Program-made: the position numbers and the translations under genes
Shown here: one piece after another, positions 1,456 to 64,000 of the stretch
Layout of the letters: every line of letters starts with the position of its first letter
Position numbering within the stretch: the first letter of the stretch is position 1
Assembly (NCBI GenBank): GCA_016928875.1
Contig: JAFGJY010000089.1
Location: 3,625 to 67,624, forward strand
From: Candidatus Omnitrophota bacterium
Lineage (GTDB): Bacteria > Omnitrophota > Omnitrophia > JAHJGZ01 > JAFGJY01
Reading direction: 5' to 3'
Length of the DNA stretch: 64,000 bases
Notes under the pieces: generated by a model
The model's database searches: none
Seen by the model: only the letters and a program-made list of their open reading frames with translations
Told to the model about the DNA's origin: nothing

Positions 1456-1567
1456 GTGCACTATGAACTATGAACAATGAACCATGCACTATTTATTCCT
1501 TACTTTTGCCTTTTAACTTTTTACTTGGCAATGGACCGTCGACCATGGACTATGAACCATGCACCAT
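1456..1567. repeat. CATG-word low-complexity blocks (direct 13-mer atgaaccatgcac at 1477..1489 and 1552..1564) flanking an AT-rich core
   Basis: gtgcactatgaactatgaacaatgaaccatgcactat and ggaccgtcgaccatggactatgaaccatgcaccat. The same word class occurs at 39989..40010, 61119..61148 and 61524..61552, followed by ttcgtaattactaattcgtaatt (CGTAA-word class). Confidence 0.7.
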
Positions 1568-1614
1568 TTCCGCCATTCGTAATTACTAATTCGTAATTTC
1601 TAATTGTCTTTCCC

Positions 1615-4189: not shown

Positions 4190-5835
4190 AGGATATTATC
4201 ATTGGTGTCAGGCACCAATTGCTTTTTCTTGTAAATCAATATCTCGGGCGGAGGAAATTCGAGCGGCACATTGACATGGATGTAAAATCTTTTGACAACT
4301 TCGTACGGACTATCCTTTTTCATAAATACATCGTCATAAAACATGAATATTTCTGGCGTCGGACATGAATAACGATACCATTCGTTGGCGTATTTATCAT
4401 CGAGAACATAGTCTTCGTTCACCTTGTTATCTTTGATCGATTCTGTGACTTTATCGATATCATCCTGCCGCATAATTATGATGTCAGGATATTCTAATAA
4501 ATTCTTCTCAATGTATCGGTTAAAATCGAACTTTGGCATCCGCCAGGCATGCGTTTTCCACGTGTATTGCTCTGACACTGACCCCACGCCTACTGTCGTC
4601 CCTGCTGGTATAGTTTCTTCAATGTATTGTGAAGCAGTGATACGAGTATCATGAAGGCGTAAATATATCCCCGATACACAAGAATATATTGAAGAGCATA
4701 TGGTCAGAAAAACAAAGCTCCATCCTGCTATTTTCATGAATACATGTTTAGAACCAATAAACTGACAACACGTATATGCCGCGATTAAACATAAGAACGG
4801 TGCTATGGTCGCTATGTACCTAGCGACCGTGAAATAGCGCCAGAACATATAATATGCAATTAAAAAAACTACGAGTAAAAAAGCGTGAGGCCTCGCACCT
4901 CTTATAGAATAAAATAACCCTATGAAGGCAAGTACCGTAACATAAAGCCCCACTGCGATTCTTGTTTCCTCATACCATTGACAGATAACGTTCACCCCCA
5001 AGGATCGATACCGGTCTACCCAATGGATCTTCTCTCTGGTATAGAATCCCACATAGCCCGAAATGTCGCGAAAAATATGGGGATGAAATAAAATAAATAC
5101 AATACCTCCGACCAACAAAGATATACAAATTAACTTTAGCTGTCGGAAAAAGACTATTTGGTTAAAACCATCCTTTCGAAAAGCGGGCAATAAAAAGAAT
5201 ATACACGCAGGCGCTACGAACATTCCACTTGTTATCTTGGTCCCCATCAAGAGACCGATACACATACCGAATATCAAACTGCTGCCGATCGATTTCTTAT
5301 TATATAGATGTATAAATGAAATGAACGTCAGCAATAAGAAAAACCCCATCGTAATATCAACGGTACACAATGGACTATTTAACACATGATAGAATGAGCA
5401 ACTCAAGAATGCAGCCGCAATGATGCCTGTCATTGGGCTGAATAGCTTCTTTCCTAAAATATACACCAAATAAAGTGACCCCGTGCCGAATATCACCGAC
5501 GCTAATCTTCCCATTATTATTGCGATCAATTTATAGTAATCTCGTGCTGATAATATTTTTACAACAATGAACTTTATGGGCAACATAACCATCCCAACGA
5601 TATATTGCATCGTAGTACCATACGCAGGAAATTGTGATGTCTCCAGATAGACCGACGGGAAATTAATTATGGTCGTATACAATTTCACCTCGTCTGGATG
5701 GAATCTTTTTGAATATAACCCGATCGGAACCCCCCACGAAATAGGGATTATTCGCAAACAAAAAGACAACACCATTAAAACAAATATTAAATTATTATCT
5801 TTTATAAAATCCTTCACGACGCGTAACGTATTCAC
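4186..5835 (-). CDS. Membrane GT-C glycosyltransferase (GT39/ArnT/PMT_2-like)
   Basis: 549 aa. The N-terminal two thirds is polytopic membrane, with an early FHPDEVKLY loop, followed by a soluble C-terminal domain. The tail ..QLVPDTNDNIL is encoded by the palindrome at 4201..4219. Confidence 0.6.
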   Translation of the reverse strand: MNTLRVVKDFIKDNNLIFVLMVLSFCLRIIPISWGVPIGLYSKRFHPDEVKLYTTIINFPSVYLETSQFPAYGTTMQYIVGMVMLPIKFIVVKILSARDYYKLIAIIMGRLASVIFGTGSLYLVYILGKKLFSPMTGIIAAAFLSCSFYHVLNSPLCTVDITMGFFLLLTFISFIHLYNKKSIGSSLIFGMCIGLLMGTKITSGMFVAPACIFFLLPAFRKDGFNQIVFFRQLKLICISLLVGGIVFILFHPHIFRDISGYVGFYTREKIHWVDRYRSLGVNVICQWYEETRIAVGLYVTVLAFIGLFYSIRGARPHAFLLVVFLIAYYMFWRYFTVARYIATIAPFLCLIAAYTCCQFIGSKHVFMKIAGWSFVFLTICSSIYSCVSGIYLRLHDTRITASQYIEETIPAGTTVGVGSVSEQYTWKTHAWRMPKFDFNRYIEKNLLEYPDIIIMRQDDIDKVTESIKDNKVNEDYVLDDKYANEWYRYSCPTPEIFMFYDDVFMKKDSPYEVVKRFYIHVNVPLEFPPPEILIYKKKQLVPDTNDNIL

Positions 5836-37814: not shown

Positions 37815-38798
37815 TTACAAATACCCATTTGAAACATACCACTCATAGGTGCGTTTAAGTCCTTCTTCAATGCCGATACGTGGCGTATAGCCAAGATCCT
37901 GCGCAGCCTTTTTATTGGAAAAACCTCTGTTCTCCCAATACCACTCGGCACGCCGCTTAAAAAGGGGTGGCGTAATACCAAAGGGTTTACATACCCATTC
38001 ACAGGCGCATGAGACCCATAACAAAAGCCAATACGGTGCATATATGAATTTGAACTTCTTATTCATCACCTTGCCGACATATGTCACCAGATCGATCAAA
38101 GAATAATAATGTTCGTCCCCTATTAAATAGGCATTTCCAACGGCCGTTGCCGATACCATTGATTCCATGAACGCATCAACGAGATTATCTATATATACCG
38201 GATGATAGGTTATCTTCCCCGATCCAAACATCGGAAAATACCCCTTCTTGACCTGCTTGAAAATCATGAGAAAGCGTCCCGGATCACCCGGACCGTAAAT
38301 AGCGGTCGGCCTCAAAATAACAGTGGTAAGACCGTTTCCCTTAAATTCTTTGACGACTTTCTCCCCTTCATATTTTGAAAACTCATAATAATCCTTAGGG
38401 TTTATCGGTGCGTTTTCATCAGCCGGCGTTATATCAACTTTGCCATGAACACCTTCGGTACTACAATATATAAGACGCTTGACACCCGCATTCATCGCAG
38501 CATTACACACAATACGTGTGCCTTCGACATTAACTGACCAATAAACAGCTTTCGGCAGATCAACACCGCGAAAGGCAGCGGCTAAATGAAATACGATCTC
38601 ACATCCCTCCATTGCGCGCTCGACAGCATCTTTATCTGTAACGCTTCCATAGATGATCTCTACTCCAAGGCTTTTTAATTCTTTATCAAAAAGCCCCTCC
38701 TGATTATCAAGGCTCCTTACCTGATGCCCGTCATGCACCAATCGTCTTACCAAATGATGCCCCGTAAATCCCGTTCCGCCAGTGACTAGTATTTTCAT
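37815..38798 (-). CDS. NAD-dependent sugar epimerase/dehydratase (extended SDR)
   Basis: VTGGTGFTGHHLVRRL, YEFSKYEGEK (YxxxK). GGAGAG RBS before ATG 38798. Confidence 0.85.
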   Translation of the reverse strand: MKILVTGGTGFTGHHLVRRLVHDGHQVRSLDNQEGLFDKELKSLGVEIIYGSVTDKDAVERAMEGCEIVFHLAAAFRGVDLPKAVYWSVNVEGTRIVCNAAMNAGVKRLIYCSTEGVHGKVDITPADENAPINPKDYYEFSKYEGEKVVKEFKGNGLTTVILRPTAIYGPGDPGRFLMIFKQVKKGYFPMFGSGKITYHPVYIDNLVDAFMESMVSATAVGNAYLIGDEHYYSLIDLVTYVGKVMNKKFKFIYAPYWLLLWVSCACEWVCKPFGITPPLFKRRAEWYWENRGFSNKKAAQDLGYTPRIGIEEGLKRTYEWYVSNGYL

Positions 38799-38812: not shown

Positions 38813-39158
38813 TTTAGTTATTCGTAAATCGTAATTCGTAAAAAGTAATGCGTAAATCGTGGTTAGTATCTAGTGCCTCGTGTATCCTAATAATAAGCCA
38901 AATATCGGGACGTGCACTCCTTAAAATATATCTATTTTGAGGATAACGTCAAAACTTTAATCAGGGAAACATTTTTAGGATTTATATTTTGCGCACAGAT
39001 TAGTTGATGCGATAACTCTTTTATTTCAATTACGTTATGAACATACACCACGTTTTACGCCTTACGTTTTACGCATTACGCTTCACGCCTCACGTTTTAC
39101 GCATCGCGCCTCACAATTCACCAACCACAATCCACCAGCCACGATTCACCAACCACCT
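38813..39158. repeat. ORF-less inverted-repeat cassette: CGTAA-word arm (38813..38860), ~185-nt core, TTACG-word arm (39049..39113) plus CACCAACC-word block (39114..39158)
   Basis: The arms are mutually complementary word arrays. The 16-mer gtaattcgtaaaaagt (38831..38846) is identical to 39404..39419. The 22-mer gccttacgttttacgcattacg (39059..39080) is identical to 41863..41884. Confidence 0.75.
38925..38952 (-). promoter_or_regulatory. Candidate sigma70-type promoter inside the ORF-less cassette core
   Basis: The minus strand reads TTGACG (38952..38947) - 16 nt - TATATT (38930..38925), ~125 nt upstream of the epimerase ATG. The context is AT-rich, so a chance match is possible. Confidence 0.2.
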
Positions 39159-39382
39159 ACATTATTCCTGACCTTTTCTTTTATCGCCCTATACGTTGTC
39201 ATCTGTTGTATTTCAGCCATCGTGAATTTCATCGAAAACTCGTTTTCAAGCGCTGTGATCATACGTAAATGTGTCATCGAATCCCAATCACCATGAGACA
39301 CCTGGGAAAAATCGTCATTAATAGACTTTACATCAATATCAAAAAAATCCGCCAGAAATTCTTTTAATTGGTCTTCCATCAT
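39146..39382 (-). CDS. Acyl carrier protein
   Basis: 78 aa with GDWDSMTHLRMITALENEF (the DS phosphopantetheine-attachment Ser context). The last codons VGGW-stop are encoded by the CACCAACC-word block. Confidence 0.85.
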   Translation of the reverse strand: MMEDQLKEFLADFFDIDVKSINDDFSQVSHGDWDSMTHLRMITALENEFSMKFTMAEIQQMTTYRAIKEKVRNNVGGW

Positions 39383-39425
39383 ATACCTCGTAAGTCGTAA
39401 AATGTAATTCGTAAAAAGTTAATTG

Positions 39426-39785
39426 TTAGCGTTTCAACGAAAATATCAAACCATTTAACATCTTTTTTATGTCTGTTATTTCTTGTTCAATCTTAAAGGC
39501 ATCTTTAACATAACCCTGTTTTTGTGCTATCACAATATGTGTATCTAATTCTGCAAGAGAACCGAGAGCCACATACAAGAACTGCGCAAACTCCTTTTTT
39601 GATTGCCTGCCTGCACCCTCGGCTATATTGGCCGGGATCGATACAGCAGCACGACGCATTTGACTAATCATCCCAAACTTTTCATCATCAGGAAAAGCTT
39701 TCACTAATACATAGATGTCGCTTACAAGTTCTATGCTTCTTTTCCATACATCGAGATCTTTATGACTTTTGTAAGTACTCATCAC
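39426..39785 (-). CDS. Four-helix-bundle protein (23S rRNA intervening-sequence protein family), copy 1
   Basis: ..KDLDVWKRSIELV..FPDDEKFGMISQMRRAAVSIPANIAEGAGRQSKKEF.QFL.VALGSLAELDT.. is the hallmark of this family. Start is GTG 39785 or ATG 39782. Confidence 0.9.
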   Translation of the reverse strand: MMSTYKSHKDLDVWKRSIELVSDIYVLVKAFPDDEKFGMISQMRRAAVSIPANIAEGAGRQSKKEFAQFLYVALGSLAELDTHIVIAQKQGYVKDAFKIEQEITDIKKMLNGLIFSLKR

Positions 39786-39802
39786 GCCTCACGTTTTACG
39801 CC

Positions 39803-41668
39803 TTACGTCTTACGAATTACCTCGATCCACGGCGTCTCAGTAATGCTACCTTTAACATCAGTACACTCGTACTCTACCGTCCCGTCATCCAGCTTCATCA
39901 CGACCTCAAACCCATGTTCATCAAAAAACGTCTTACACGGCATATTCTTCTTCGTCGGCACATACTCCGCCTTTATCTTATCTATGCCCCATGCACCATG
40001 CACTATGCACTTTTTCAGCACTCCCATCGCCGCCGCCTCTATCCCTCGCCCGAGCGCTCGGCAACTTATTATAAAACTATCTATTACCGCTTCTTTATTT
40101 TCAATTTTTACGAGGTATGTCCCAATAATGCCCAAATTCCCGAACTTATCTTCTGCTTCAACTACATGAAGAATACAATTATTATCTTTATAAAAAATCT
40201 CAATATCGCCAATATCGTAGCGTTTTGTAGTTACATTAAACTGATTGGTTTTAATAAATAACTGGTGAACACGCGCAAGCTGGTCTGTGTTGGGTTTATA
40301 GACCCGCACGGATGTACCTAGCGAATGCAAATACTCATTAATGTCAGTAATAGCACTTTTCTCCTCTTCCCGCTTCCGTTGCTGTTTGTATTGGATTGAC
40401 TTGGTCGCATCTTCGGCCGTGATAGTCAAACGTTCAAAGCACGGCAACGAATAAATAAGAGGTGCATATTCAACGGGGTCATCAGATAACTGTATGGTCA
40501 TGACATCAGGCTGCGCTTCCCTCATAAGCTCGCATTCCGCCGGATTGTCATCTATAAAGACAATACTATCGAGCCCAATATTAAGCTGCCCCGCGATCTT
40601 TGCTATATTCACCGCTTTAGGCTCCCAATCGACCATGATCGCGGAAAAATCATCCAATGAAAGGGGCATCTCTGATGCACGCAGTTTAAAAAGCTCTTCA
40701 ACATCCGCCATATTGTTCTTACTGCAAATCGCTAACAGTATCCCTCTCGCCTTAAGTGACTTTATTGCATATTGGAACGCCCTAAAGGCTTCAGCCTGCG
40801 GATTACCCTGTCCTATCAACACACCCTGCGGCCCATCTTCACCTACTATACCGTCCCACAATGTATTGTCCAGATCAACAACTAAACACTTCATTGCGCA
40901 TCCCTTGATCACTTGAATATATCGAGCAATATCAGCAGCCATAAACCGCATGAAATCATCCGACCATTCGATCTTGGATAAATAATAAAAGGTATCGTCA
41001 CATGCACGTTCACTGCCAAACCGATTAACGGCACCCGCAAGATCATAAATAACAACGCGTGGATCCTTCTTAAATGCCGTACTCAACATAGTGTTAAGGT
41101 GAGCGTAAAATGCACTTTCACCAGCCTCACTTTTTGTATCAGCGATCCCATACGCTTTACGTGCCGGCATTGCAAAATTTGCCACCATGATCATCGACTT
41201 TGTGCTCTTAGAAACCATTTGAACCCACTGTTTACATTCATCGATGATACGGGCAGCCTCAGCTTTATGTTCTGCCGATGATAAAGAGCTATACTGATAA
41301 TAAATATCCGGAGACAATTCTCGCAGTGATAATTGGAAGAAAATGACGCTAGGCTTAGCGGCATATAGGCCAGATTGCGGATTAAGCGCCTCCTGTTGGT
41401 ACTGTCCATAGGGGGCTACATATTCAGAGATCGATATCCCTCTGCACAGCGCTGATGCAATAACATTACGTGAAATTACATCAAGGGTAGTATTTCCCAC
41501 AAATGAAACTTTAATATCCGTTTTATCAGCCTCTTTATTCTTTTTATAAATCAAATCAATGTCCTTTGAGGAAAGGTCTTCAGAAGCAACAGACACAAGT
41601 ATCTTCTTCAACGCAGAAATCGACTCACTATTTTTTATCGACTCTCTTAATTGCTTATTATCACTCAT
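39803..41668 (-). CDS. FkbH-like HAD-IIIC phosphatase/acyl-loading protein with C-terminal GNAT-like domain
   Basis: CLVVDLDNTLWDG (HAD DxDxT) and IFIDDNP. 621 aa. The last codons VIRKT-stop are encoded by the TTACG-word arm. Confidence 0.8.
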   Translation of the reverse strand: MSDNKQLRESIKNSESISALKKILVSVASEDLSSKDIDLIYKKNKEADKTDIKVSFVGNTTLDVISRNVIASALCRGISISEYVAPYGQYQQEALNPQSGLYAAKPSVIFFQLSLRELSPDIYYQYSSLSSAEHKAEAARIIDECKQWVQMVSKSTKSMIMVANFAMPARKAYGIADTKSEAGESAFYAHLNTMLSTAFKKDPRVVIYDLAGAVNRFGSERACDDTFYYLSKIEWSDDFMRFMAADIARYIQVIKGCAMKCLVVDLDNTLWDGIVGEDGPQGVLIGQGNPQAEAFRAFQYAIKSLKARGILLAICSKNNMADVEELFKLRASEMPLSLDDFSAIMVDWEPKAVNIAKIAGQLNIGLDSIVFIDDNPAECELMREAQPDVMTIQLSDDPVEYAPLIYSLPCFERLTITAEDATKSIQYKQQRKREEEKSAITDINEYLHSLGTSVRVYKPNTDQLARVHQLFIKTNQFNVTTKRYDIGDIEIFYKDNNCILHVVEAEDKFGNLGIIGTYLVKIENKEAVIDSFIISCRALGRGIEAAAMGVLKKCIVHGAWGIDKIKAEYVPTKKNMPCKTFFDEHGFEVVMKLDDGTVEYECTDVKGSITETPWIEVIRKT

Positions 41669-41703: not shown

Positions 41704-41833
41704 GTCGCGTCCCGGCTTGTTTTATGTCATTCCCGACTTACTTCACGTCATTTCCGACTTGCTTCACATCATTCCCGACTTGCTTCATGTCATTCCCGAC
41801 TTGCTTCATGTCATTCCCGCGAACGCGGGAATC
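41704..41833. repeat. 21-bp half-palindrome stutter array (about 6 units) ending in a full palindrome
   Basis: Units start at 41704, 41726, 41747, 41768 and 41789 (gtcattcccgacttgcttcat and variants). The terminal unit is gtcattcccgcgaacgcgggaatc (41810..41833). Confidence 0.85.
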
Positions 41834-41862
41834 TATATTGATGTTTCCGTTTAACTTCCCAT

Positions 41863-41949
41863 GCCTTACGTTTTACGCATTACGTCTTACTCCCCGCTAT
41901 CCACCAAGCACTAATCACCAACCACCAACCACTAACCACCATCCACCAA
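41863..41949. repeat. Second copy of the composite TTACG-word + CACCAACC-word block
   Basis: gccttacgttttacgcattacgtcttac, then atccaccaagcactaatcaccaaccaccaaccactaaccaccatccaccaat. It has the same order and orientation as 39049..39158. Confidence 0.8.
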
Positions 41950-55102: not shown

Positions 55103-56640
55103 TGTCCAATACTCTCGTAAATATTGATATCAAGTTTTCTATCGAAATGAAGTTGCTTAAAGTTCTCTTCTAAGAATTTCTTAACCTCAGGTTTAAAATA
55201 CCTCTTATCATCAAGATCATCAAATCTTGATACAAAATAAACTTTTTTATGGGCTAAGACTTTTCTTATTATATTTAAATCCTCAATTCTTTTTGGGTTT
55301 CTGACTGATTCATCAAGTGACTCCATAAAACTCCATAGATAATCAGGTTCTTTACCAAAATAATAACAAAAATGTTCCCATTCTGTTGATACAAATACAG
55401 CATCCCTATCGATCTTATCTTTTATTGATTCATAGAAAGCCTTATAATCCCCCCAAGTACATTTAATTGCTCTATCGATAGCGGGAAGTGCAATAGGAAC
55501 AGTAATTATAAATATGAATACAAGTATAAAAAGACTCAAACCCGCCTTGATGGCCATTGCCTTTTCTTTCATGCTTTTCATCGCTCTATTAATGATAACT
55601 GACGCAAAAACAGCAGGAATAAGCAAATAAAATGAAATCCCATAAAAGAAATATCTCTCTTGTTTGACTCGAAACAAAAATGAATGCAATAGCACTAACG
55701 TTAAGAAAACAATACTGAAATACAAACCGCGACGTTTATACTTTTGGATCATACAAACTATGCCAAAAGGGAGAAAATATATCATAACCCCATAATAATC
55801 GGTTAATATCCATCGATAATAATGAGGAGAGAACGTCATATATTTGTCCCACCCTAATCCATAACGCGCTATTGTGTAGAACTCGATCATGTATTCTTTC
55901 TTCACAAAATAGCAGATCATAAATAATAAAGGAATTCCTACTAAAGTAAGTAAATATTTATACCACACCCCGGAAAACCGCTCCTCTCTGTCATAGGTAA
56001 CAATTACGAAGCGAATAATGGCATAAAAGAATAGAACAAAAGAAAAGTTTGCTGCCAACGGCTGAAGAATGAACGCAACTCCAAAGGCAAGACATGATAA
56101 AAAAAGCATTGTCGGTGATATCTGCATTTTATTTATGATTGGAATTCCCTTGATAATATGTTTGTCTCGATTTTGTTCATAGCCTTCGAAGAAGAACCAA
56201 ACCCCCGTAAAAAAGAATAGGTTAAAAAGAGCATACATCCGGCAACCGCGAGCGAAGTGAATGTTCAATGGGCTAAGTGCCAAGAATAACATAAATATAA
56301 ATGCCACATTAAGCCCAAAAACACTTCTCACCAAAAGAAATCCTATAATTATAAAAGCGATATCGAATATTACCGAAGGGAACCGAGCAGACCATTCATC
56401 CCTTCCAAAAAGTTTAAACGAAGCAGCAACACTATATGTGAATGGCAGAGCTCGCGTATAAAGTCGTTCTGGTGGAATTATGGGTTGACCCGTCTCAATA
56501 ATACCCTTGGCGGCCAACACATGAAAAAACTCATCTTGCCAAAAGCCGAACTTCCCAAGGTCCCACAATCTCAAACAAAGAGCTACACCGATAATCAAAA
56601 TGAACAAAGCAACATAAATAGTTTTATTATGTATTTTCAT
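55099..56640 (-). CDS. Membrane GT-C glycosyltransferase (ArnT/GT39/GT83-like), second copy
   Basis: The start MKIHNKTIYVALFILIIGVALCLRLWDLGKFGFWQDEFFH at 56640 forms an ATGA overlap and follows a GGGAGG RBS. The D-E loop after TM1 is typical of GT-C. The protein is polytopic with a soluble C-terminus. Confidence 0.65.
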   Translation of the reverse strand: MKIHNKTIYVALFILIIGVALCLRLWDLGKFGFWQDEFFHVLAAKGIIETGQPIIPPERLYTRALPFTYSVAASFKLFGRDEWSARFPSVIFDIAFIIIGFLLVRSVFGLNVAFIFMLFLALSPLNIHFARGCRMYALFNLFFFTGVWFFFEGYEQNRDKHIIKGIPIINKMQISPTMLFLSCLAFGVAFILQPLAANFSFVLFFYAIIRFVIVTYDREERFSGVWYKYLLTLVGIPLLFMICYFVKKEYMIEFYTIARYGLGWDKYMTFSPHYYRWILTDYYGVMIYFLPFGIVCMIQKYKRRGLYFSIVFLTLVLLHSFLFRVKQERYFFYGISFYLLIPAVFASVIINRAMKSMKEKAMAIKAGLSLFILVFIFIITVPIALPAIDRAIKCTWGDYKAFYESIKDKIDRDAVFVSTEWEHFCYYFGKEPDYLWSFMESLDESVRNPKRIEDLNIIRKVLAHKKVYFVSRFDDLDDKRYFKPEVKKFLEENFKQLHFDRKLDINIYESIGQ

Positions 56641-57551
56641 ACCTCCCACCGCTTCATTTTTACTATCAATTTGTGGCCTGATAAAAAGAATATCAAATGA
56701 TCGAATTGCGCGAAGAGCCAAAATAACGGATATGTCAGTGAATACGCCATAAATAGTTTCTTGTATTTATTCATGTCATGTGAAGTCACGACGTTGCCTT
56801 TGGATGGTTCTGTGTTCTGGGTTGCACGCTCGGATAAGTTCTGAGTTCCGAGTTCTGAGTTCTGGGTAGCGACATTGGATGAGTTCGGGGTTCGGGGTTC
56901 GGGGTTCTGAGATGTACACTCTGAACTCTGAACTCTGAACTCAGAACCTTTTAACAATCCCATCCCAAAACAAATAATGATGTCTATCAATTCCGAAAAG
57001 AAACGTGAATAGGCCCGGGATGTGGCTACATCAAAGCTATCGAAGAGCTCTGCAAGCTCTTTTTTTGTATACCCGGGGCGTACATGCCCGTGCTTTTCGT
57101 CTGTTAACCCTAGCATATATTGTAAAGGCCGTATGAGTGACCACGATACTTTATGCGGCGCAAGTACTATTAATTCACCTTCCGGCTTCAATATGCGTTT
57201 AATTTCCAGCGCAAAAGCGTGATCGTCCTCTACGTGTTCTAGCATATCAACGATAACGATAACGTCAAAAGCATGATCAGCAAATGGCAGATGAGGCGGA
57301 TTGTCGATATGCACGACATTAGTTTTAACCAATGACTCGATCGAGTTAACCGTTTCCATACTGAGATCCGCACTCGTCCATTGACCACCTTGCTGTCGCA
57401 ATAAATAACTGATAACACCATTATCAGAACCCAGATCAAGACAGGCCTTGTTATCTAGGTTAGGTAGTAAACGATTAATCTGGTGCCATTTTTCTTTCTT
57501 GAGCACTGATTTTGAGAATAATTTTAAATGCCAATTATCCATTGCGTTCAC
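56637..57551 (-). CDS. Class I SAM-dependent methyltransferase (type 11) with an in-frame repeat insertion near the C-terminus
   Basis: CLDLGSDNGVISYLL (motif I), FDVIVIVDMLEHVEDD. The segment SEFRVQSSECTSQNPEPRTPNSSNVATQNSELGTQNLSERATQNTEP is encoded by the repeat at 56807..56948. Confidence 0.8.
   Translation of the reverse strand: MNAMDNWHLKLFSKSVLKKEKWHQINRLLPNLDNKACLDLGSDNGVISYLLRQQGGQWTSADLSMETVNSIESLVKTNVVHIDNPPHLPFADHAFDVIVIVDMLEHVEDDHAFALEIKRILKPEGELIVLAPHKVSWSLIRPLQYMLGLTDEKHGHVRPGYTKKELAELFDSFDVATSRAYSRFFSELIDIIICFGMGLLKGSEFRVQSSECTSQNPEPRTPNSSNVATQNSELGTQNLSERATQNTEPSKGNVVTSHDMNKYKKLFMAYSLTYPLFWLFAQFDHLIFFLSGHKLIVKMKRWEV
56807..56948. repeat. ORF-less GTTCTGAG-word palindromic element inside the methyltransferase CDS
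   Basis: The left arm gttctgagttccgagttctgagttctggg (56838..56866) matches the reverse complement of the right arm ctctgaactctgaactctgaactcagaacc (56919..56948) at about 25/29 positions. The centre holds a gttcggg x3 tandem (56883..56905). Confidence 0.8.
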
Positions 57552-58557
57552 TCGTCCCTACTAATTTACGTAATGCCCCATACCCCAAATACTGATCGGC
57601 CAAAAATGTTATTGCATATTGAAACGGAATCCCGCCGATCTGCTTACGGCACAGGCGGTCGCATTTCTTACAAAGTGAAAGCTCGTTAACGTTCCCTGCT
57701 AAATTACGCCGGAGCGTTGTATACGCCGCGCCGTTCCATATTTCTTTAATAGAACTCTTGCTGACGTTCCCGAGGTTCATACACGCCATAAAGTCCTGAG
57801 GACAAGGCGTTACGGTTCCATCCCAACATATGACCATTGCGTACCATGGGAACGTGCATACATTACCGTTCAGGATCTCGCCGCCTTTATTCGATTCAAC
57901 GGCCCAGTCATATTCCTGCTTAGTAATGATCTCATTTACCCCAAGGTCACGGAATTCCTGCTCAAGCGCGCGCGTCTCAGCCGTGTCAACGTTCATGCTC
58001 TCATCTTTAAAATGAATACGTTCGATAACAATGTACGGGAGTGCCTCCCTCAACTGTTTCTTGCGTTTGAGGAGTTCTTTTATGTTCGCCACCGTTGTCT
58101 CAAAATTCCCGCCGCGACGGACCTTTTCGTATACATCCTTGGTAAAACCGTCAAAAGAAATAGATACTAAATTCGGGGCGGCTTCGATAAGGAGTTCTGA
58201 CTTATCAAGCGAAAGCAACCCGGCATTGGTGTGAAAACGCACTGCAATCCCTCTATTCTTTGCATATATGATCATTTTAAAGAGGTCTTTGTTCGTAAGC
58301 GGTTCCCCGCGATGATGCAAATAGACATCATTCACAAAATCTTTAGCCTCATCAATGATCTTTTTAAAGAGTTCAAAACTCATCTTCCCTTTCTTCTCTG
58401 CGGCCAAATCTTTGTTTGGGCACATCACACATTTGAGGTTACAGATCAGGCTTGACTCGATCCACAGCTTGATGGGCATGGTATCGAGCGTGGTCTTACG
58501 GCGCTTAAAGTTCGCGAGTATTTTGGCGAGGGTGTAGGTCTTATGTATAAAGTTCAT
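57535..58557 (-). CDS. Radical SAM enzyme with SPASM/twitch-like C-terminal Cys cluster
   Basis: SSLICNLKCVMCP (CxxxCxxC). C-terminus CTFPWYAMVICWDGTVTPCPQDF..C...CKKCDRLC. Paralogue of 11690..12781. Confidence 0.8.
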   Translation of the reverse strand: MNFIHKTYTLAKILANFKRRKTTLDTMPIKLWIESSLICNLKCVMCPNKDLAAEKKGKMSFELFKKIIDEAKDFVNDVYLHHRGEPLTNKDLFKMIIYAKNRGIAVRFHTNAGLLSLDKSELLIEAAPNLVSISFDGFTKDVYEKVRRGGNFETTVANIKELLKRKKQLREALPYIVIERIHFKDESMNVDTAETRALEQEFRDLGVNEIITKQEYDWAVESNKGGEILNGNVCTFPWYAMVICWDGTVTPCPQDFMACMNLGNVSKSSIKEIWNGAAYTTLRRNLAGNVNELSLCKKCDRLCRKQIGGIPFQYAITFLADQYLGYGALRKLVGTSERNG

Positions 58558-58580
58558 AGTTCTGGGTTCTGGGTTCTGGG

Positions 58581-58943
58581 TTATTTTAATTTTTGTGAAA
58601 AAGTAAATATCATTCGTGATAATATGTCTAATTCTTCTAATAGAGCCTTTTGTTTATCATCAGTAATATATCCTTGGTTCGCGGAAATAAACACTTGCGT
58701 TTCAAGTTCTGCGATAGAGCCACGTGCTACTGCTAAAAATTGTTTAAATTCCTTCGCATGATTTCTTCTGAATCCCTCAGCAATATTTGATGGGACCGAA
58801 ACTGAAGCCCGTCTCATTTGAGATATCATCCCAAACTTCTCGTCTTCTGGATATTTTTTCGTGATCTCATATATAGCATTGACGATATCCATCCCTTTCT
58901 GCCATATTTTTAAATCTTTATAGTGCTTTATTCCTTCTGTCAT
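58581..58943 (-). CDS. Four-helix-bundle protein (23S rRNA IVS protein family), copy 2
   Basis: ..YKDLKIWQKGMDIV..YPEDEKFGMISQMRRASVSVPSNIAEGFRRNHAKEFKQFLAVARGSIAELET.. . Confidence 0.9.
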   Translation of the reverse strand: MTEGIKHYKDLKIWQKGMDIVNAIYEITKKYPEDEKFGMISQMRRASVSVPSNIAEGFRRNHAKEFKQFLAVARGSIAELETQVFISANQGYITDDKQKALLEELDILSRMIFTFSQKLK

Positions 58944-58966
58944 AGTTAATTATAACTTTCTACTAA

Positions 58967-59100
58967 GTCCTGGGTTCAGCGTTCTGTGTCCTGAGTTAAT
59001 TCAACTTCTTTGCGAATGTTAATATCAAATGCTTTTTTCTTCTCTTATTCTAATATCCTAGCGTTCAACCCAGAACCCAGAACGCTGTACTCTGAACTCA
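58967..59100. repeat. GTTCTGGG-word arms upstream of 4HB copy 2 (an inverted pair around an AT-rich ~65-nt loop)
   Basis: gtcctgggttcagcgttctgtgtcctgagtt (58967..58997) pairs with gttcaacccagaacccagaacgctgtactctgaactca (59063..59100). There is a perfect 10-mer pair at 58977..58986 / 59078..59087. A third arm, gttctgggttctgggttctgggtt, lies at 58559..58582. Confidence 0.8.
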
Positions 59101-60036
59101 TTCAATGATCTCCGCGATGTGATATTCTTTGATATTCCGCGCGTGTGTAAAAATGATCAATTCCCCGAGCAACCCCAGGGAGGAAACCTGTACACCAAGG
59201 ACCATGAGGAGCATTCCCAACAATACCATGGGACGGTCAGCCAATGCCTCGTTCAGAAAAAGTCTCGCGTAGCCTAAATATGCCGTAATGAGCGTCCCCA
59301 TTACAAACACGGTGCTTCCTATCAATCCAAAAAATCTCAAGGGTTTGCGGGTGAATTTGATGATAAAAAAGAGTGAAATGATATCGATCATCCGCCGTAC
59401 ATATACTCCAATGCCATAAAACCTTAGTTTTTTATCTTCTTCGCGTTGCTGTGCCGGCAGCTCGCTGATCTTGTATCCCTGCTGGAACGCAAGGATCGGT
59501 ATAAAACGATGCATGTCCCCCGTCAGATTAAGGCCTTTCGCAACCTCAGCCCGCATGCACCTGAGACCGCAGGAAATATCTTTAAATGAAAAGTTCGTGA
59601 AATTCTTAATGAGCCCATGGAACACCGCGGCTTGTACCCTATTAATGATATTGTCCTGGCGCGGTTCGCGACGCGTTATAACGAGGTCATAACCGTGCTC
59701 AAGTTCATCGAGCATAGTGTTCATGACGTCCGGTACGACCTGAAAGTAGGCTGACAGCGTGAAGATTATATCTCCGCGGGCGTGTTCGAAGCCTACCATA
59801 AGGGCAACCGCTTCAAAGAAGTTTCGTGCGAATTTGATGATACGTATCTCGGGGAATTCCTGGCGTAATCCTTTGAGTGCCTGGAATGCGTCATTATGCA
59901 CGCCATCAACGACGAAAATGAATTCGAACGTCAAACCGCGTGCTTTTAAGGGTTGTGAGTATTCGGTGAAGAGTTTACGCAAATCGTGATAGCGTTCGAT
60001 CACAGGAACCACTACGGAAATCTTTGGATTATTCAT
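59098..60036 (-). CDS. GT2 polyprenol-phosphate glycosyltransferase-like (DPM1/GtrB/ArnC-type, C-terminal TM helices)
   Basis: ISVVVPVIERYHD...FIFVVDGVHND..; two C-terminal TM helices (..FFGLIGSTVFVMGTLITAYL.., ..VLLGMLLMVLGVQVSSLGLLGELII); GAGGAG RBS. Confidence 0.7.
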   Translation of the reverse strand: MNNPKISVVVPVIERYHDLRKLFTEYSQPLKARGLTFEFIFVVDGVHNDAFQALKGLRQEFPEIRIIKFARNFFEAVALMVGFEHARGDIIFTLSAYFQVVPDVMNTMLDELEHGYDLVITRREPRQDNIINRVQAAVFHGLIKNFTNFSFKDISCGLRCMRAEVAKGLNLTGDMHRFIPILAFQQGYKISELPAQQREEDKKLRFYGIGVYVRRMIDIISLFFIIKFTRKPLRFFGLIGSTVFVMGTLITAYLGYARLFLNEALADRPMVLLGMLLMVLGVQVSSLGLLGELIIFTHARNIKEYHIAEIIE

Positions 60037-60082
60037 TTATGTTCTCCTCTTGTAATTATAATTGGTGCGGGTTGTTTTTTAT

Positions 60083-60185
60083 TGTCATCCTGAGACGAGC
60101 GAAGCGAGGCGAAGGATCCAGGATAAGCATTCACGTGGTACTTGTAGCCTAGATCCTTCGCCCCTCCGGGGCTCAGGATGACAGC
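60083..60185. repeat. Hairpin MITE family A, copy 2 (intergenic, abutting the stop of 60187..61146)
   Basis: tgtcatcctgagacgagcgaagcgaggcgaaggatccaggataagc...cctagatccttcgcccctccggggctcaggatgacagc. The minus-strand frame AVILSPGGAKDLGYKYHVNAYPGSFASLRSSQDD is open. Confidence 0.85.
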
Positions 60186-60186
60186 A

Positions 60187-61146
60187 TTATTTAATTATTT
60201 CAGCTGTAACTGTACTTAATTTTTCCGCTTTGTATTTTCCTTGCCGTAAAATGATCACGCTTAATAACGCTAAAAAAATAAAATGCGTCACCAGCATGAG
60301 CATCAGCAATGTCGCTCCGGGAAAGACGATGCCCGGCGTATGCGCAAAGATATAATGTTCTATGGTCGCGATGAGACAGAGCACGCTTAATGCCAGGAAC
60401 GGTAATGTCCAGAACGCGAAGAATAATGCCGGCTTTGTTGAGAAACGAGTTAAAAGCACCATAGTAAATAGATCCGCAAACACCTTGAACGTCCGTGAAA
60501 GCCCGTATTTTGATTTCCCATACACCCTCGCATAATGGTTCACCGGCATCTCCGCGGTACGAGCACCGGTGATCGAAGCCACTGCCGGGAAAAAGCGATG
60601 CATCTCAGCGTATGCCTGCACTTCCCTGATACATTCCCGTTTGTATGCCTTGAGCGAACAACCGTAATCGTGCAAATGAACGCCGGTGAGGATCGATATG
60701 AGCTTATTGGCACACATTGAGGGTAACTTGCGCGTTAAGAATTTATCCTGGCGTTTGTACCGCCACCCGCTCACGACCTCATAGCCTTCGTCCATCTTAT
60801 CAAGCAACTTTTTCATATCAGCCGGATCGTTCTGCAGATCGCCGTCCATGGTAATAATGATATCGCCGCGTGCGTGATCGAAACCCGCGACCATGGCCGG
60901 CGTCTGGCCGTAATTCTTTCTGAAGCGGATAACGCGCAGGTCATTGGTGCCTGACACCAACTGTTTCAATATCTCAGGTGTCTTGTCACTCGAGCCATCA
61001 TCGATCAATATGATCTCATACGAACGCCCAAGCTTTACCGCTTCATCGTGGACACGCTCATAGAGCTTCTTAACGCATTCTTGTTCGTTGTAAATAGGAA
61101 TTACGATCGACAGATCAGGGTTCATGGTGCATAGTTCATGGTTCAT
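60187..61146 (-). CDS. GT2 polyprenol-phosphate glycosyltransferase (ArnC/GtrB-like)
   Basis: LSIVIPIYNEQE..ILIDDGSSDKT..ITMDGDLQNDP plus C-terminal TM helices. ATG 61146 forms ATGA with the 4HB stop. The first 7 codons (MNHELCT) lie in the repeat arm; an alternative start is ATG 61125 (MNPDLSIVIP). Confidence 0.85.
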   Translation of the reverse strand: MNHELCTMNPDLSIVIPIYNEQECVKKLYERVHDEAVKLGRSYEIILIDDGSSDKTPEILKQLVSGTNDLRVIRFRKNYGQTPAMVAGFDHARGDIIITMDGDLQNDPADMKKLLDKMDEGYEVVSGWRYKRQDKFLTRKLPSMCANKLISILTGVHLHDYGCSLKAYKRECIREVQAYAEMHRFFPAVASITGARTAEMPVNHYARVYGKSKYGLSRTFKVFADLFTMVLLTRFSTKPALFFAFWTLPFLALSVLCLIATIEHYIFAHTPGIVFPGATLLMLMLVTHFIFLALLSVIILRQGKYKAEKLSTVTAEIIK

Positions 61147-61508
61147 GGTACGATACTCTTCATTAATGCTGTAATTTTACGGCCTAATTGAGACAGCAAG
61201 CTCAATAATCGTTCTTTAATTTCATTATTTAAAAATCCCAAATTATATGAAAGCATTACTTGCGTTTCTAATTCAGCTAACGACCCTCGCGCGATACTCA
61301 AAAACTGCTTAAACTCTTTCTTGTGTGAACGTCGAAACCCTTCTGCAATATTCGAAGGAATTGAAACCGCAGCTCTTTTCATTTGTATAACAATTCCATA
61401 TTTTTCTTCATCGGGATAATTGCTACAGACCTCGTAGACAAATTTAGCCAAGACCATCCCCTCTTGCCACACGATCAAATCTTGATATGTCTGTATCTTT
61501 TTATTCAT
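61143..61508 (-). CDS. Four-helix-bundle protein (23S rRNA IVS protein family), copy 3
   Basis: MNKKIQTYQDLIVWQEGM..YPDEEKYGIVIQMKRAAVSIPSNIAEGFRRSHKKEFKQFLSIARGSLAELET.. . The start at 61508 was chosen by alignment with copies 1 and 2; the ORF-track GTG at 61535 lies in the repeat arm. Confidence 0.9.
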   Translation of the reverse strand: MNKKIQTYQDLIVWQEGMVLAKFVYEVCSNYPDEEKYGIVIQMKRAAVSIPSNIAEGFRRSHKKEFKQFLSIARGSLAELETQVMLSYNLGFLNNEIKERLLSLLSQLGRKITALMKSIVP

Positions 61509-61552
61509 ATTCTTTATTGCTTTACCATGCACCACGCACTATGCACCATGCA

Positions 61553-62386
61553 CTATACTTTCAGGGAATCCCCATACTCCGCGATGGTCATGAATTCATT
61601 GCCCGACATGATCGCACGCAATTTTGATTCTGTTTTATCAAGGTTTATATAATGTCGGAATGCTGCTAACGCGTTCGTCGTTATGCGCGGCTGTTCCGGA
61701 TCGAATTCCCACGGATGAAAGTACATATTCACAACCTGCTCTGCGGCATTGACCTGTTGCATACATTTTTTTATTACCCATAAAGGCAACATTCTAAAGT
61801 AACCGCCGCCGGCAAAGGGTATCCTCTTACCTAATACTTCTGCGGTTGATATTGGTATCTCCTGCAACTGCCCTTTTTGCGTTTTTATGACATACGGATA
61901 ACGCTCTTTACTCGGCAAGCCATAATGATCATGATGCATCGGGAACAATGATGAGTCGAACTCAATCCCAAGTTCTTTTATAACATCATATGCCCACATG
62001 GTCTTCCGTGATATTGAAAAGCATGGCGCTCGATAGGACCTTATCTTCTTCTGCGCCAAGGTGCCTAATATCTGCAGAGACCTTTCTACATCTTTCTTAT
62101 ATTCTTCTTGAGTTTGTTTGTATACGAGTTCATGCCCATAGCCATGAGAGGCGATCTCATGGCCACGTTCGGCAATGTGTCTTATCACATCAGGACGTTT
62201 TTCTGCCACACACCCAAGCACAAAAAAGGTCGCCTTGGCATTATGATCATCGAGGATACGCAATATTCTCATGAGGCCTACGGTAAGACGTGAGTCGAAG
62301 TTCTTCCACTCGTCCTGACGTATGACAGACTTGAAGTTCTCCACTTGGTAATATTCTTCGACGTCGAAGGTGAGTATGATCTTCAC
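61553..62386 (-). CDS. Polysaccharide deacetylase (NodB-type; resembles the DUF3473/PEP-CTERM-locus subfamily)
   Basis: VKIILTFDVEEYYQVENF.., ..IASHGYGHE.., C-terminal ..YFHPWEFDPEQP. GTG 62386 is preceded by AAGGAG at 6-nt spacing. The ORF-track ATG 62440 lies in a repeat (IRYTIY words). Confidence 0.8.
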   Translation of the reverse strand: MKIILTFDVEEYYQVENFKSVIRQDEWKNFDSRLTVGLMRILRILDDHNAKATFFVLGCVAEKRPDVIRHIAERGHEIASHGYGHELVYKQTQEEYKKDVERSLQILGTLAQKKIRSYRAPCFSISRKTMWAYDVIKELGIEFDSSLFPMHHDHYGLPSKERYPYVIKTQKGQLQEIPISTAEVLGKRIPFAGGGYFRMLPLWVIKKCMQQVNAAEQVVNMYFHPWEFDPEQPRITTNALAAFRHYINLDKTESKLRAIMSGNEFMTIAEYGDSLKV

Positions 62387-62444
62387 TTGGTGCTCCTTGT
62401 ATATCGTATAGCGTATTGCGTCGTGCGTATTGCGTTGCACCCCT

Positions 62445-62555
62445 CGTCATCATTACGAAAGAGTGCAGGGCCCTTGCTTCCGTCGTCATTGCGAAAGAGT
62501 GCAGGGCCCTTACTTCCGTCGTCATTGCGAGTGAACACAGCGCTCTTACTCTTCA
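62445..62555. repeat. 36-bp half-element stutter array (about 3 units) leading into MITE A copy 3
   Basis: Units cgtcatcattacgaaagagtgcagggcccttgcttc (62445..62480), cgtcgtcattgcgaaagagtgcagggcccttacttc (62481..62516), and a degenerate third unit. Confidence 0.8.
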
Positions 62556-62664
62556 TGTCATCCTGAGACGAGCGCAGCGAGGCGAAGGATCCAGGATATT
62601 TGTTCACTAGGTTCGCATAACCTGGGTCCTTCGTCACGCCTTTGGCGTGACTCAGGATGACAGC
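62556..62664. repeat. Hairpin MITE family A, copy 3 (intergenic)
   Basis: tgtcatcctgagacgagcgcagcgaggcgaaggatccaggatatttg...cctgggtccttcgtcacgcctttggcgtgactcaggatgacagc. The frame VILSHAKGVTKDPGYANLVNKYPGSFASLRSSQDD is open. Confidence 0.85.
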
Positions 62665-62687
62665 GGTATCATTATGCATTACTTGAA

Positions 62688-62789
62688 TCATGTCCTCGGG
62701 CTCCAGGTAACCAGTTTTTTGCCTCTAAGCCACTCAACCCCGGCGACCATGGAGGCGTAGTTGACGAGGCAAAGATAATAACATAAACG
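62688..62789 (-). pseudogene. Detached second copy of the last 33 codons + stop of the GT2 gene at 62932..64000
   Basis: It encodes RLCYYLCLVNYASMVAGVEWLRGKKLVTWSPRT-stop, against RLCYYLCLVNYASMVAGIQWLRGKKLVTWNPRT-stop at 62932..63033. That is 3 aa changes despite many nucleotide (mostly synonymous) differences. No upstream coding continuation exists. Confidence 0.75.
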
Positions 62790-62801
62790 TACAATCTTCC
62801 T

Positions 62802-62905
62802 TGTCGTCCTCAGCCTCTTCCCTTTGTCGTCCCGGAATTCTTCTGTCGTCCCCGCGGAAGCGGGGATCTCGGTACTTAGGTCCCCGCTTTCGCGGGGACG
62901 ACATG
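62802..62905. repeat. Family B palindromic element, copy 1, preceded by about 21-bp tgtcgtcc stutter units
   Basis: tgtcgtcc starts at 62802, 62824 and 62844, then gtccccgcggaagcggggat-ctcggtacttag-gtccccgctttcgcggggac (62844..62905). Confidence 0.8.
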
Positions 62906-62931
62906 AAGATGAAATGGGACGACGTGCTACG

Positions 62932-64000
62932 TTATGTTCTCGGATTCCACGTAACTAATTTCTTCCCCCTCAGCCACTGGATGCCGGCGACCATAGAGGC
63001 GTAGTTGACAAGGCACAAATAGTAACAGAGACGGATAACTGAGTATATCGTATTTCGTATATCGTATTTCGTCGCACCATTGTCGTCATTGCGTCTCTTG
63101 CTGTCATCCTGAGGAGTTTCGCCTTCAGGCGGAACGACGAAGGATCCAGGATATTCGTTCACTTGATTCAAGTAACCTGGGTCCTTCGCCCCTTCGGGGC
63201 TCAGGATGACAGCGGCTGCGCCGGAACGAACATATCCATACACCGCCAATGCATAAAATACCAACTGCAGCGTAAACAGCACGTGATACAACGTACCGGC
63301 CGGGATGAGAAAATAATTGGTTATAAAGACGACGAGCTGCATCCAGCCTATATCATAACGGAATCCCTTGTGTGAGATGATCTGCCAGCTTACAAGGCCA
63401 TTATTAAAAACGTTAAACGATAAGTCCTTAAATTTCATGAGCGCATGAATGCTGCGGAGCGCCACGCGCACACGCATCGAAAATTCTTCTTCATGGGTCT
63501 CATTTGCATCTTCAACGATCACCGCTTCGGGCTCATAGACAACGCGGTAATTTTTCTGCATAACTGTTAAAGGCAATACGAAATCCGGTAGGTCTTCAGC
63601 GTCCATATCTTCATAAAGCTCTAGACGACAGGCGTCTATACCGCCGTCAACGCCGATCACAGAGCCGACCTTGGTCTCGAGTTTGCGCAATGTGTTCTCA
63701 TAGGCCATGTAGGCGCCGCAGCCTTCACTGACACCGCTGTCTGTCTTTGTCTGATAGACCATTTTACCCGTTACGTAGCCGACGGTCGGGTCTGCGAAAT
63801 TACGGATAAGGGCTTTTATAGCTCCTGGTTTATATATAGAATTAGCATCGCTGAAGATAAGAATAACATCACCGTTATCACCTATTGTCGTCCCCGCGGA
63901 AGCGGGGATCTCGGTACTTAGGTCCCGGCTCTGCGGCCGGGATGACATGGCTAGGTCCCCGCTTTCGCGGGGACGACATGAATCGGTGCCGGGACGACCT
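62932..64000 (-). CDS. GT2 glycosyltransferase with C-terminal TM helices, partial (N-terminus beyond window end), carrying two in-frame repeat insertions
   Basis: ..DVILIFSDANSIYKPGAIKALIRNFADPTVGYVTG.. (GT-A D-x-D/DAN region), ..EDLPDF.., and C-terminal TM segments. The frame stays open upstream of ATG 63948 to position 64000, so the true start lies outside the window. Confidence 0.7.
   Translation of the reverse strand, partial: GRPGTDSCRPRESGDLAMSSRPQSRDLSTEIPASAGTTIGDNGDVILIFSDANSIYKPGAIKALIRNFADPTVGYVTGKMVYQTKTDSGVSEGCGAYMAYENTLRKLETKVGSVIGVDGGIDACRLELYEDMDAEDLPDFVLPLTVMQKNYRVVYEPEAVIVEDANETHEEEFSMRVRVALRSIHALMKFKDLSFNVFNNGLVSWQIISHKGFRYDIGWMQLVVFITNYFLIPAGTLYHVLFTLQLVFYALAVYGYVRSGAAAVILSPEGAKDPGYLNQVNEYPGSFVVPPEGETPQDDSKRRNDDNGATKYDIRNTIYSVIRLCYYLCLVNYASMVAGIQWLRGKKLVTWNPRT
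63102..63213. repeat. Hairpin MITE family A, copy 4 (inside the GT2 CDS, in frame)
   Basis: tgtcatcctgaggagtttcgccttcaggcggaacgacgaaggatccaggatattcg...cctgggtccttcgccccttcggggctcaggatgacagc. Translated as AVILSPEGAKDPGYLNQVNEYPGSFVVPPEGETPQDDS. Confidence 0.85.
63886..63980. repeat. Family B palindromic element, copy 2 (inside the GT2 CDS, in frame)
   Basis: Same as 62844..62905 but with an extra internal palindrome, gtcccggctctgcggccgggat. Translated as ..RESGDLAMSSRPQSRDLSTEIPASAGTT.. . Confidence 0.8.

Follow-up and report, generated by a model that had tools for sequence, protein, structure and literature searches.

INTRODUCTION

Genes of the PF05635 family, which encode four-helix-bundle (4HB) proteins, were first found inside intervening sequences (IVSs) of 23S rRNA, and the function of these IVSs and of their S23p/4HB open reading frames (ORFs) has been a standing question since the 1990s. 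This report concerns cassette 2 (c2), an element containing a PF05635 gene that lies in a polysaccharide/glycosylation operon of a Candidatus Omnitrophota metagenome-assembled genome (MAG), between a gene for a family-2 glycosyltransferase (GT2) and a gene for a radical SAM/SPASM protein (rSAM). The window, i.e. the whole stretch of DNA that was analysed, comprises 64,000 nt (assembly GCA_016928875.1, contig JAFGJY010000089.1, positions 3,625 to 67,624) and contains two further 4HB cassettes, c1 and c3.

The 23S rRNA IVSs of Coxiella burnetii, Leptospira and Brucella resemble c2 in having a PF05635 ORF inside, terminal inverted repeats with a stem of about 28 bp and heptameric repeats beside the ORF, and in being dispensable elements that show decay. 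They are situated in helix 25 or 45 of 23S rRNA, whereas c2 lies between protein-coding genes; c2 also differs in that its arms abut stop and start codons and in the presence of a third arm. In the Coxiella IVS, which has an S23p ORF inside, the 28-bp terminal stem was shown experimentally to be cut by RNase III, and the tandem heptameric repeats upstream of the ORF vary in copy number between strains (PMC4990558).

Tandem arrays of 7-nt units between genes have been described in cyanobacteria (short tandemly repeated repetitive sequences, STRR), Beggiatoaceae (TAACTGA) and Bacteroidetes, where they often end a few nucleotides from a start codon. They are numerous, differ between related genomes and have been proposed to act in translation or rearrangement (PMC4679880). 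Arrays of this type are mostly direct repeats of one genome-wide heptamer with no associated gene, whereas those of the window form inverted pairs around a 4HB gene and belong to several heptamer families in one genome. Miniature inverted-repeat transposable elements and repetitive extragenic palindromic elements are like the cassettes in their inverted termini, their several copies (including gene-less ones), their presence or absence between relatives and their insertion at gene junctions. Unlike those elements, the cassettes have termini made of tandem heptamers that differ between copies, and no conserved terminal sequence, target-site duplication or cognate transposase was identified; when c2 was inspected for a target duplication, its distal arm was found to grade into native sequence. 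Two-state leader RNAs (attenuators and riboswitch expression platforms) share with c2 a strand that has two exclusive partners, one of which covers a start codon, but in c2 there is no conserved alternative pairing, terminator, aptamer or leader peptide, and the two partners are separated by 415 nt that include a whole gene.

It is probable, in our judgement, that c2 is an IVS-like module consisting of a PF05635 gene and inverted heptamer arms placed exactly between the GT2 stop codon and the rSAM start codon. The canonical pair would be the 5' arm (arm A) with the arm 3' of the ORF (distal A'), while the third arm, which lies between arm A and the ORF (proximal A'), and the 'loop' that precedes it would be a decayed duplicate of the 3' junction. 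The original prediction, made from the sequence of c2, had instead read the three arms as a possible switch that would link 4HB expression or processing to expression of the downstream rSAM gene.

RESULTS

Cassette 2 occupies a stop-start junction

In minus-strand order, c2 consists of the GT2 stop codon, arm A, a 69-nt AT-rich stretch, the proximal A' arm, a 22-nt leader, a 120-codon ORF and the distal A' arm. The features are as follows, all on the minus strand.

59098..60036, GT2 gene (family-2 glycosyltransferase), upstream neighbour; Pfam PF00535, E 1e-14
59100-59098, GT2 stop codon TGA, touching arm A; position verified
59067..59098, arm A (5' arm), G/T-rich, heptamer units GTTCAGA and GTTCTGG; inverted repeats I1 and I2, Tandem Repeats Finder period 7
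58998..59066, 'loop' of the proximal hairpin, 69 nt, containing the final ~31 nt of the 4HB ORF twice, as degenerate tandem copies; direct repeats D1 and D2
58966..58997, proximal A' arm, C/A-rich, a diverged copy of the distal arm; I2 and D1
58944..58965, short leader from the proximal arm to the 4HB start codon, read from the sequence
58581..58943, 4HB ORF, intact, 120 aa, PF05635/TIGR02436, S23p family; ATG at 58943, TAA at 58583-58581
58551..58582, distal A' arm, canonical arm on the 3' side, (CCCAGAA)x3 that merges gradually into the native start region of rSAM, ACTATGAAC; I1, covering the rSAM ATG
57535..58557, rSAM gene, downstream neighbour, 340 aa; Pfam PF04055 and PF13186, ATG at 58557

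An inverted-repeat search paired arm A with both A' arms over 32 nt each. The pair formed with the distal arm (I1, 58551-58582/59067-59098) is 88% complementary and the pair formed with the proximal arm (I2, 58966-58997/59067-59098) is 78% complementary. As originally predicted, each pair has an exact core: the 10-mer at 59078-59087 is the reverse complement of 58977-58986 (CAGAACGCTG, private to arm A and the proximal arm), and the 17-mer at 59067-59083 is the reverse complement of a stretch within 58559-58582. These matches exceed chance: of 3000 35-mers drawn at random from the window, not one had a reverse-complement match of at least 17 nt within 600 nt, and the heptamer motif, taken as the 15-mer CCCAGAACCCAGAAC with at most two mismatches, occurs 8 times in the window compared to 0.02 expected occurrences.

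The positions of the GT2 stop, the 4HB start and stop and the rSAM start in the original prediction all hold, while two of its details needed amendment. The distal arm was said to end 1 nt before the rSAM start; its position is right, but the complementarity runs on through the start codon to 58551. Likewise, the predicted AT-rich loop of ~65 nt exists, but it is 69 nt long and holds degenerate copies of the 4HB ORF end. The rSAM start at 58557 is backed by a full-length orthologue alignment, with homologues that span 100% of the query; 598 rSAM homologues have E<=1e-60. An independent assembly, a Logan contig from SRR13394437, matches the window with 100% identity over 6363 nt, showing that the sequence is no accident of one assembly pipeline.

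Promoter and terminator scans of the locus gave chance-level promoter matches only and no terminator, and no promoter-like site was called in the leader (58944..58965). A promoter for the 4HB gene in the 'loop' (TATAAT 6 nt before the ATG) was considered and rejected, as the scan did not call the site and the other two cassettes have no TATAAT. A domain search identified the neighbours of c2 as GT2, rSAM, a methyltransferase (MT), PMT_2 and deacetylase. Exact look-ups of the rSAM protein and of protein P0001 returned no match.

The c2 protein belongs to the PF05635 family

The c2 4HB protein matched Pfam PF05635 with an E-value of 8e-39 (132.5 bits, cutoff 33.8) and TIGR02436 with 121 bits (cutoff 24), which places it in the family. 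It also matched a solved relative, XCC0516 (PDB 2gsc), with an E-value of 3e-25, and the same 4HB protein is present at NCBI from a Candidatus Omnitrophica MAG. Among the 4HB proteins compared, that of c2 is as similar to its paralogue in c3 as to the 4HB protein of L114, a locus from another metagenome that is described below (L-numbers denote comparison loci outside the window).

The diversity-generating retroelement (DGR) protein Avd has a homologous 4HB fold, but c2 scored below the Avd cutoffs, with 29.8 bits against a cutoff of 80 for the NF033474 Avd model and 28 against 40 for the bAvd model. The neighbours include neither a reverse transcriptase nor a template/variable repeat pair, and a DGR/Avd role was rejected. 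Defence models in PADLOC gave 0 matches for all three 4HB proteins of the window.

The third arm is a duplicate of the 3' junction

Direct repeat D1 relates the proximal to the distal arm region over 63 nt with 71% identity. Besides the arm, it takes in the stop codon and the final ~32 nt of the 4HB coding sequence, and it lines up a TAA in the 'loop' with the TAA of the ORF. Degenerate copies of the ORF end are found in the 'loop' at 59037-59057 and 59006-59026, the one just after arm A being D2. Outside the arm itself, 21-23 of the 32 nt match the ORF end in register (p<5e-5 by shuffling), and among the 63968 32-mers of the window only 2 have as many as 23 matches, of which one is the ORF end. 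In the corresponding frame the relic reads HLILTFAKKLN before its stop codon, compared to RMIFTFSQKLK in c2 and RMITTLKGKLN in L114. As the ~32 nt before the proximal arm repeat the 3' end of the ORF in register, we conclude that the third arm is a duplicated 3' junction.

The simplest reading of the repeats is that the segment consisting of the ORF end and A' was duplicated and the upstream copy then decayed. Alternatively, the whole unit of ORF and A' may have been duplicated, with subsequent loss of all but the last bases of the upstream ORF copy. With the third arm and the 'loop' explained as a decayed second copy of the 3' junction of c2, the three-arm layout would most simply be a by-product of arm repeat dynamics rather than a conserved regulatory design.

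The cassette is variable at the same gene junction

Two other genomes allowed the GT2-rSAM junction to be compared directly. The closest relative found is L115, whose nucleotide identity to the window is 72-74% in each of the two genes beside the junction and whose GT2 has the same last 22 residues. Its GT2-rSAM junction (L115 311-492) contains no 4HB gene and no arm A; instead, the spacer is home to an inverted-repeat element of another kind (GTCGTCATTGCGA...). The alignment to the window picks up again at 58575, within the distal arm, and L115 has AACCCAGAACTCGGAACC before the rSAM ATG, i.e. two CCAGAAC-like units are kept. In L110, from another Omnitrophota genome, the gene order is deacetylase-GT2 fusion, GT2, rSAM, MT and PMT-like, with 48-58% amino acid identity to the window (58% for rSAM over residues 1-340, 50% for GT2). 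L110 has no 4HB genes, and its GT2-rSAM spacer has small GC-rich hairpins with neither a cassette nor heptamers. The spacer is thus 540 nt with the cassette in the window, compared to 165-182 nt in L115 and 101 nt in L110.

In L114 a 4HB gene 57% identical to that of c2 lies directly 5' of the rSAM orthologue (61%), with other genes before it. This cassette has two arms only (4534-4567 and 4954-4987), the first beginning right after the upstream stop codon and the second ending 13 nt before the ATG. The rSAM gene is therefore known without a cassette, with a two-arm cassette and with three arms; homologues that have only two arms were the very finding that the original prediction had named as its own refutation.

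L114 also has, at 2-367, a second and divergent 4HB gene (26-32% identical to those of c1-c3) directly 5' of the orthologue of the window GT2, which is 67% identical, so that 4HB cassettes recur at different junctions of related operons. A separate repeat region of L115 (1512-1830) follows the rSAM stop codon. It comprises an A-type arm and what is left of the MT start (ATGGATAATTG), together with a nested inverted-repeat element of the GTCGTCATTGCGA type, extended A' arrays and heptamers of sequence CCACCAA. The gene 3' of these repeats encodes an epimerase, and the MT and PMT genes are missing. Contigs with MT or rSAM homologues (L111-L113, L116 and L117) showed no synteny with the window, and a metagenome scan with the rSAM protein gave only matches of at most 38% identity with no synteny.

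Inverted heptamer arms with nearly fixed polarity surround 4HB genes in many phyla

One genome per species was scanned with an alignment of the three 4HB proteins of the window, yielding 80 loci from many phyla (L002-L081). Complementarity was then sought within 160 nt on each side of the 4HB ORF and z-scored. Complementary flanking arms were found with z>4 at 52 of the 80 ORFs and with z>6 at 43. Most arms have heptamer periodicity; the heptamer itself changes between loci, but the two arms remain complementary. At 50 of 73 loci the 4HB gene has the same orientation as both of its neighbours. The 5' arm begins a median of 1 nt beyond the upstream stop codon, and a median of 17 nt separates the 3' arm from the following ATG.

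Arm polarity is nearly invariant. Although the heptamers are unrelated between loci, the 5' arm contains more G than C in 43 of 44 stems (survey and window combined) and the downstream arm is C-rich; G+T makes up 67% of the arm upstream of the ORF, and C+A 67% of the arm downstream. Several 5' arms (L018:36-145, L040, L064, L058 and L025) are canonical G-quadruplex motifs or telomere-like repeats, with units such as (GGGTAAC)n, (AGGGGCT)n and TTAGGG(G).

The order A-loop-A'-ORF-A' was found in only 3 of the 44 cassettes, namely c2, L043 and L074, and a mirrored order, A-ORF-A-A', in L050 and L068. The extra arm of L043 is a ~90-nt insertion that the orthologous loci L045 and L047 do not have.

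Arm A has two nearly isoenergetic partners

The original prediction gave arm A two possible partners, and the calculated energies bear this out: the isolated duplexes have -43.1 kcal/mol (proximal) and -43.2 kcal/mol (distal). The local hairpin of 156 nt folds with -45.2 kcal/mol (z -5.5). A 591-nt transcript folds with -125.3 kcal/mol when the long-range stem is formed, and with -121.2 kcal/mol when the distal arm is blocked. The A:distal A' stem has 28 pairs in the minimum free energy (MFE) structure and, as had been predicted, it covers the rSAM start codon in the full-transcript fold. The full transcript therefore favours the distal stem by about 4 kcal/mol, such that two folds are near in energy and one of them hides an expression signal, as a switch would require; neither fold is strongly favoured, which spares the original prediction the refutation that a single dominant fold would have brought. 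According to these models the two folds are predicted to be real alternatives.

Folding of growing transcripts gave a different picture of how they might be reached. In the MFE structures of all lengths between 161 and 566 nt, arm A is part of the proximal hairpin, and the partner of arm A changes only once the distal arm is complete. A direct-path search gave a refolding barrier of at least 40 kcal/mol, a value that is a heuristic upper bound since the interior rearranges too. Because this barrier is large, a kinetic trap appears more likely than a reversible switch.

These results bear on the proposal that the three arms are a two-state RNA switch, in which the proximal hairpin would permit translation of 4HB and rSAM, the A:distal A' stem would span the ORF and block the rSAM start, and a signal or GT2/4HB translation would set the balance. 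The isoenergetic duplexes, the flip of the MFE structure only with a complete distal arm and the coverage of the rSAM ATG are what such a switch would need, the same topology is present in L043 and L074, and ribosomes terminating at the GT2 stop, which abuts arm A, would be expected to open that arm. However, the layout is not conserved (two arms in L114, no cassette in L115 and L110), 40 of 43 cassettes do not have the topology, the extra arm of L043 is missing from its orthologous loci, and the third arm is a duplicated ORF end. A read-out or sensor element (terminator, aptamer) was not found by terminator and Rfam scans; the Rfam scan, which covered 56500-61800, identified no rRNA and no family at E<=1 except two chance-level matches. 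The large heuristic barrier, moreover, points to a trap. We therefore regard the switch as very improbable. It would be physically possible, yet it fails the comparison with homologous loci (two-arm c1 and L114, cassette-free L115 and L110), which leaves it comparatively unsupported as judged from sequence, and the value of the specific claim in the original prediction is negative. The third arm may have a derived, lineage-specific regulatory effect.

Another proposal is a selected decoy. The spare arm would capture arm A cotranscriptionally, permanently block the enclosing stem and relieve an occlusion of the rSAM start to which insertion of the cassette would otherwise lead, thus acting as a constitutive fix rather than a switch. 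The proximal hairpin as the MFE structure at all nascent lengths, the high refolding barrier and the inclusion of the rSAM ATG in the distal arm are consistent with this proposal, as is the recurrence of a local hairpin plus third arm in about 5 of 44 cassettes. Most cassettes, however, make do with two arms that are equally near the next start codon, and L114 has no decoy at the same gene, so that selection for a decoy seems very doubtful. Also quite unlikely is a broader proposal, according to which PF05635 cassettes would be pan-bacterial IVS-like modules in mRNAs at stop-start junctions, the heptamer arms, G-rich on the 5' side in every case, would bridge the interruption by RNase III excision or by stop/restart juxtaposition and make it near-harmless, and the extra arm of c2 would create a kinetically controlled two-state leader that sets whether the rSAM start is sequestered.

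Pairing is not confined to cognate arms. Arm A of c2 and the second A' arm of an insert in the MT gene, which belongs to the same heptamer family, form a duplex of -41.2 kcal/mol, and in the c3 neighbourhood a non-cognate pair (-37.3 kcal/mol) is stronger than the cognate one (-26.6 kcal/mol). Pairs across different heptamer families are weak (-7 to -26 kcal/mol). From these calculations, alternative arm partners are expected to be generic wherever a heptamer family recurs.

Other arms and cassettes in the window

The window contains the following further features, all on the minus strand.

61115..61556, cassette 1; 4HB ORF 61143-61508 (annotated to 61535), arms 61524-61556 and 61115-61151
39390..39820, cassette 3; 4HB ORF 39426-39785, arms 39784-39820 and 39390-39424, CGTAAAA/TTTTACG family
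39050-39114 and 38817-38865, further CGTAAAA-family arms in the c3 neighbourhood
56806..56949, MT insert of the c2 heptamer family with no 4HB gene; one A-type and three A'-type arms

The MT insert is 1.6 kb downstream of c2, in frame in the class I methyltransferase ORF 56637-57551. It consists wholly of heptamer arms (41-45 residues), and its A' arms are in tandem with a 45-nt period. Seven MT homologues (47-55% identity) and the syntenic MT of L110 do not have it. Heptamer arrays are also found elsewhere with no 4HB gene, at module boundaries throughout the window.

Cassette 1 has two arms only, of the GTGCATG/CATGAAC family, with a duplex of -43.4 kcal/mol. It is located between a polysaccharide deacetylase/DUF3473 gene and the GT2 gene, and its arms supply a stop codon (TAG 61555-61553) and in-arm ATGs for restart. 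In L110 (2011-3822) the deacetylase and GT2 are one fused ORF of 603 aa, with the position of c1 corresponding to the fusion linker, residues 262-287. Arrays of GTGCATG/GTTCATA, the c1 arm family, also occur at 1452-1605 (minus strand), at the far end of the window, and at 39982-40014, inside the 3' part of the FkbH-like gene 39803-41668.

Close to c3, a gene-less CGTAAAA hairpin (38817-39157, minus strand) has arms around a 185-nt AT-rich spacer just 5' of the epimerase gene 37815-38798. A GGTGGTT heptamer array lies 5' of this hairpin, and a small PP-binding (ACP-like) ORF (39146-39379) ends inside the array. A composite GGTGGTT and CGTAAAA array (41865-41949, within 41710-41949, minus strand) directly follows the stop codon of a gene for a 706-aa Big_5-domain protein, and five copies of a 21-nt repeat (41710-41819) and a small GC hairpin (tcccgcgttcgcggga) are 3' of it. 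Finally, a ~600-nt intergenic region (62397-63093, minus strand) is bounded by direct, non-inverted CGATATA/CGCAATA arrays (62397-62435 and 63042-63073) and contains 36-nt repeats (62445-62550) with the GTCGTCATTGCGA motif that is also present in L115, as well as GC-rich hairpins (gtcgtccccgcgaaagcggggac).

DISCUSSION

For the IVS-like module that we favour, a mechanism can be proposed by analogy with the 23S rRNA IVSs. The arms would pair in the polycistronic RNA to form a duplex of about 28 pairs, which would bring the upstream stop and the downstream start together and provide a substrate for RNase III. In c2 the proximal hairpin would form first during transcription and probably be kinetically trapped. 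Overall, the spare arm would probably keep arm A occupied and leave the distal arm and the rSAM start unpaired, which might in turn affect rSAM translation.

Several observations weigh against this interpretation. Mismatches in the 44 stems show no excess of G:U over A:C (56 vs 44, p=0.27) and include 120 of the transversion type; with no G:U excess and many transversions, there is no positive signature of selection on the arms at the RNA level. A family hidden Markov model built from 76 4HB ORFs scored the relic at 0.2 bits, no better than shuffles, so that the case for a relic is made at the nucleotide level only. Both partners of arm A look well kept (the 10-mer in the proximal arm and the 17-mer in the distal arm, with near-isoenergetic duplexes), and the three-arm topology of 3 of 44 cassettes, together with the mirrored forms, could indicate a recurrent selected variant. 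The cassettes of c2 and L114 are orthologous by position only, and sequence identity cannot show orthology as c2 is equally like c3.

The mismatch pattern is also what would be expected if the arms act in DNA. In that case the heptamer arrays would serve as substrates for strand slippage, hairpin formation or recombination, by which gene modules of polysaccharide loci are inserted, duplicated, deleted and shuffled; the third arm would be a recombination scar, and pairing in RNA would play no part. The differences in cassette presence among related genomes, the 4HB-less arms inserted in frame in the MT gene, the tandem A' arms with their 45-nt period and the arrays at module boundaries argue for such a role, as do the same-family arms of L115, which bracket an MT-start relic and another repeat element where the window has whole genes. 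Against it stand the strict polarity of the arms, with the G-rich arm upstream in 43 of 44 stems despite unrelated heptamers, which follows the direction of transcription, and the fact that the arms abut stop and start codons. The best-studied relatives, the rRNA IVSs, work as RNA stems cut by RNase III, and no transposase or recombinase was identified in the nine neighbouring ORFs scanned. A DNA-level role is thus a serious rival to the IVS-like module, although we consider it unlikely, and by itself it leaves the transcription-linked polarity unexplained.

Searches of the literature for heptamer arms around 4HB genes outside rRNA turned up only the Coxiella IVS and Beggiatoaceae heptamer papers, and we found no description of an IVS-like architecture around mRNA-borne PF05635 genes in the searchable literature. 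We place the general interest of the locus in the architecture of the cassette, i.e. its insertion between stop and start codons and the polarity of its arms, rather than in the third arm. The layout of the rRNA IVS, a heptamer stem with an S23p ORF, is also found around PF05635 genes in ordinary operons of many phyla. If the arms work as RNA, the cassettes would be a bacterial case of an insertion that is neutralised at the transcript level in mRNAs; if they work as DNA, they would constitute a repeat-driven engine of module shuffling in polysaccharide loci.

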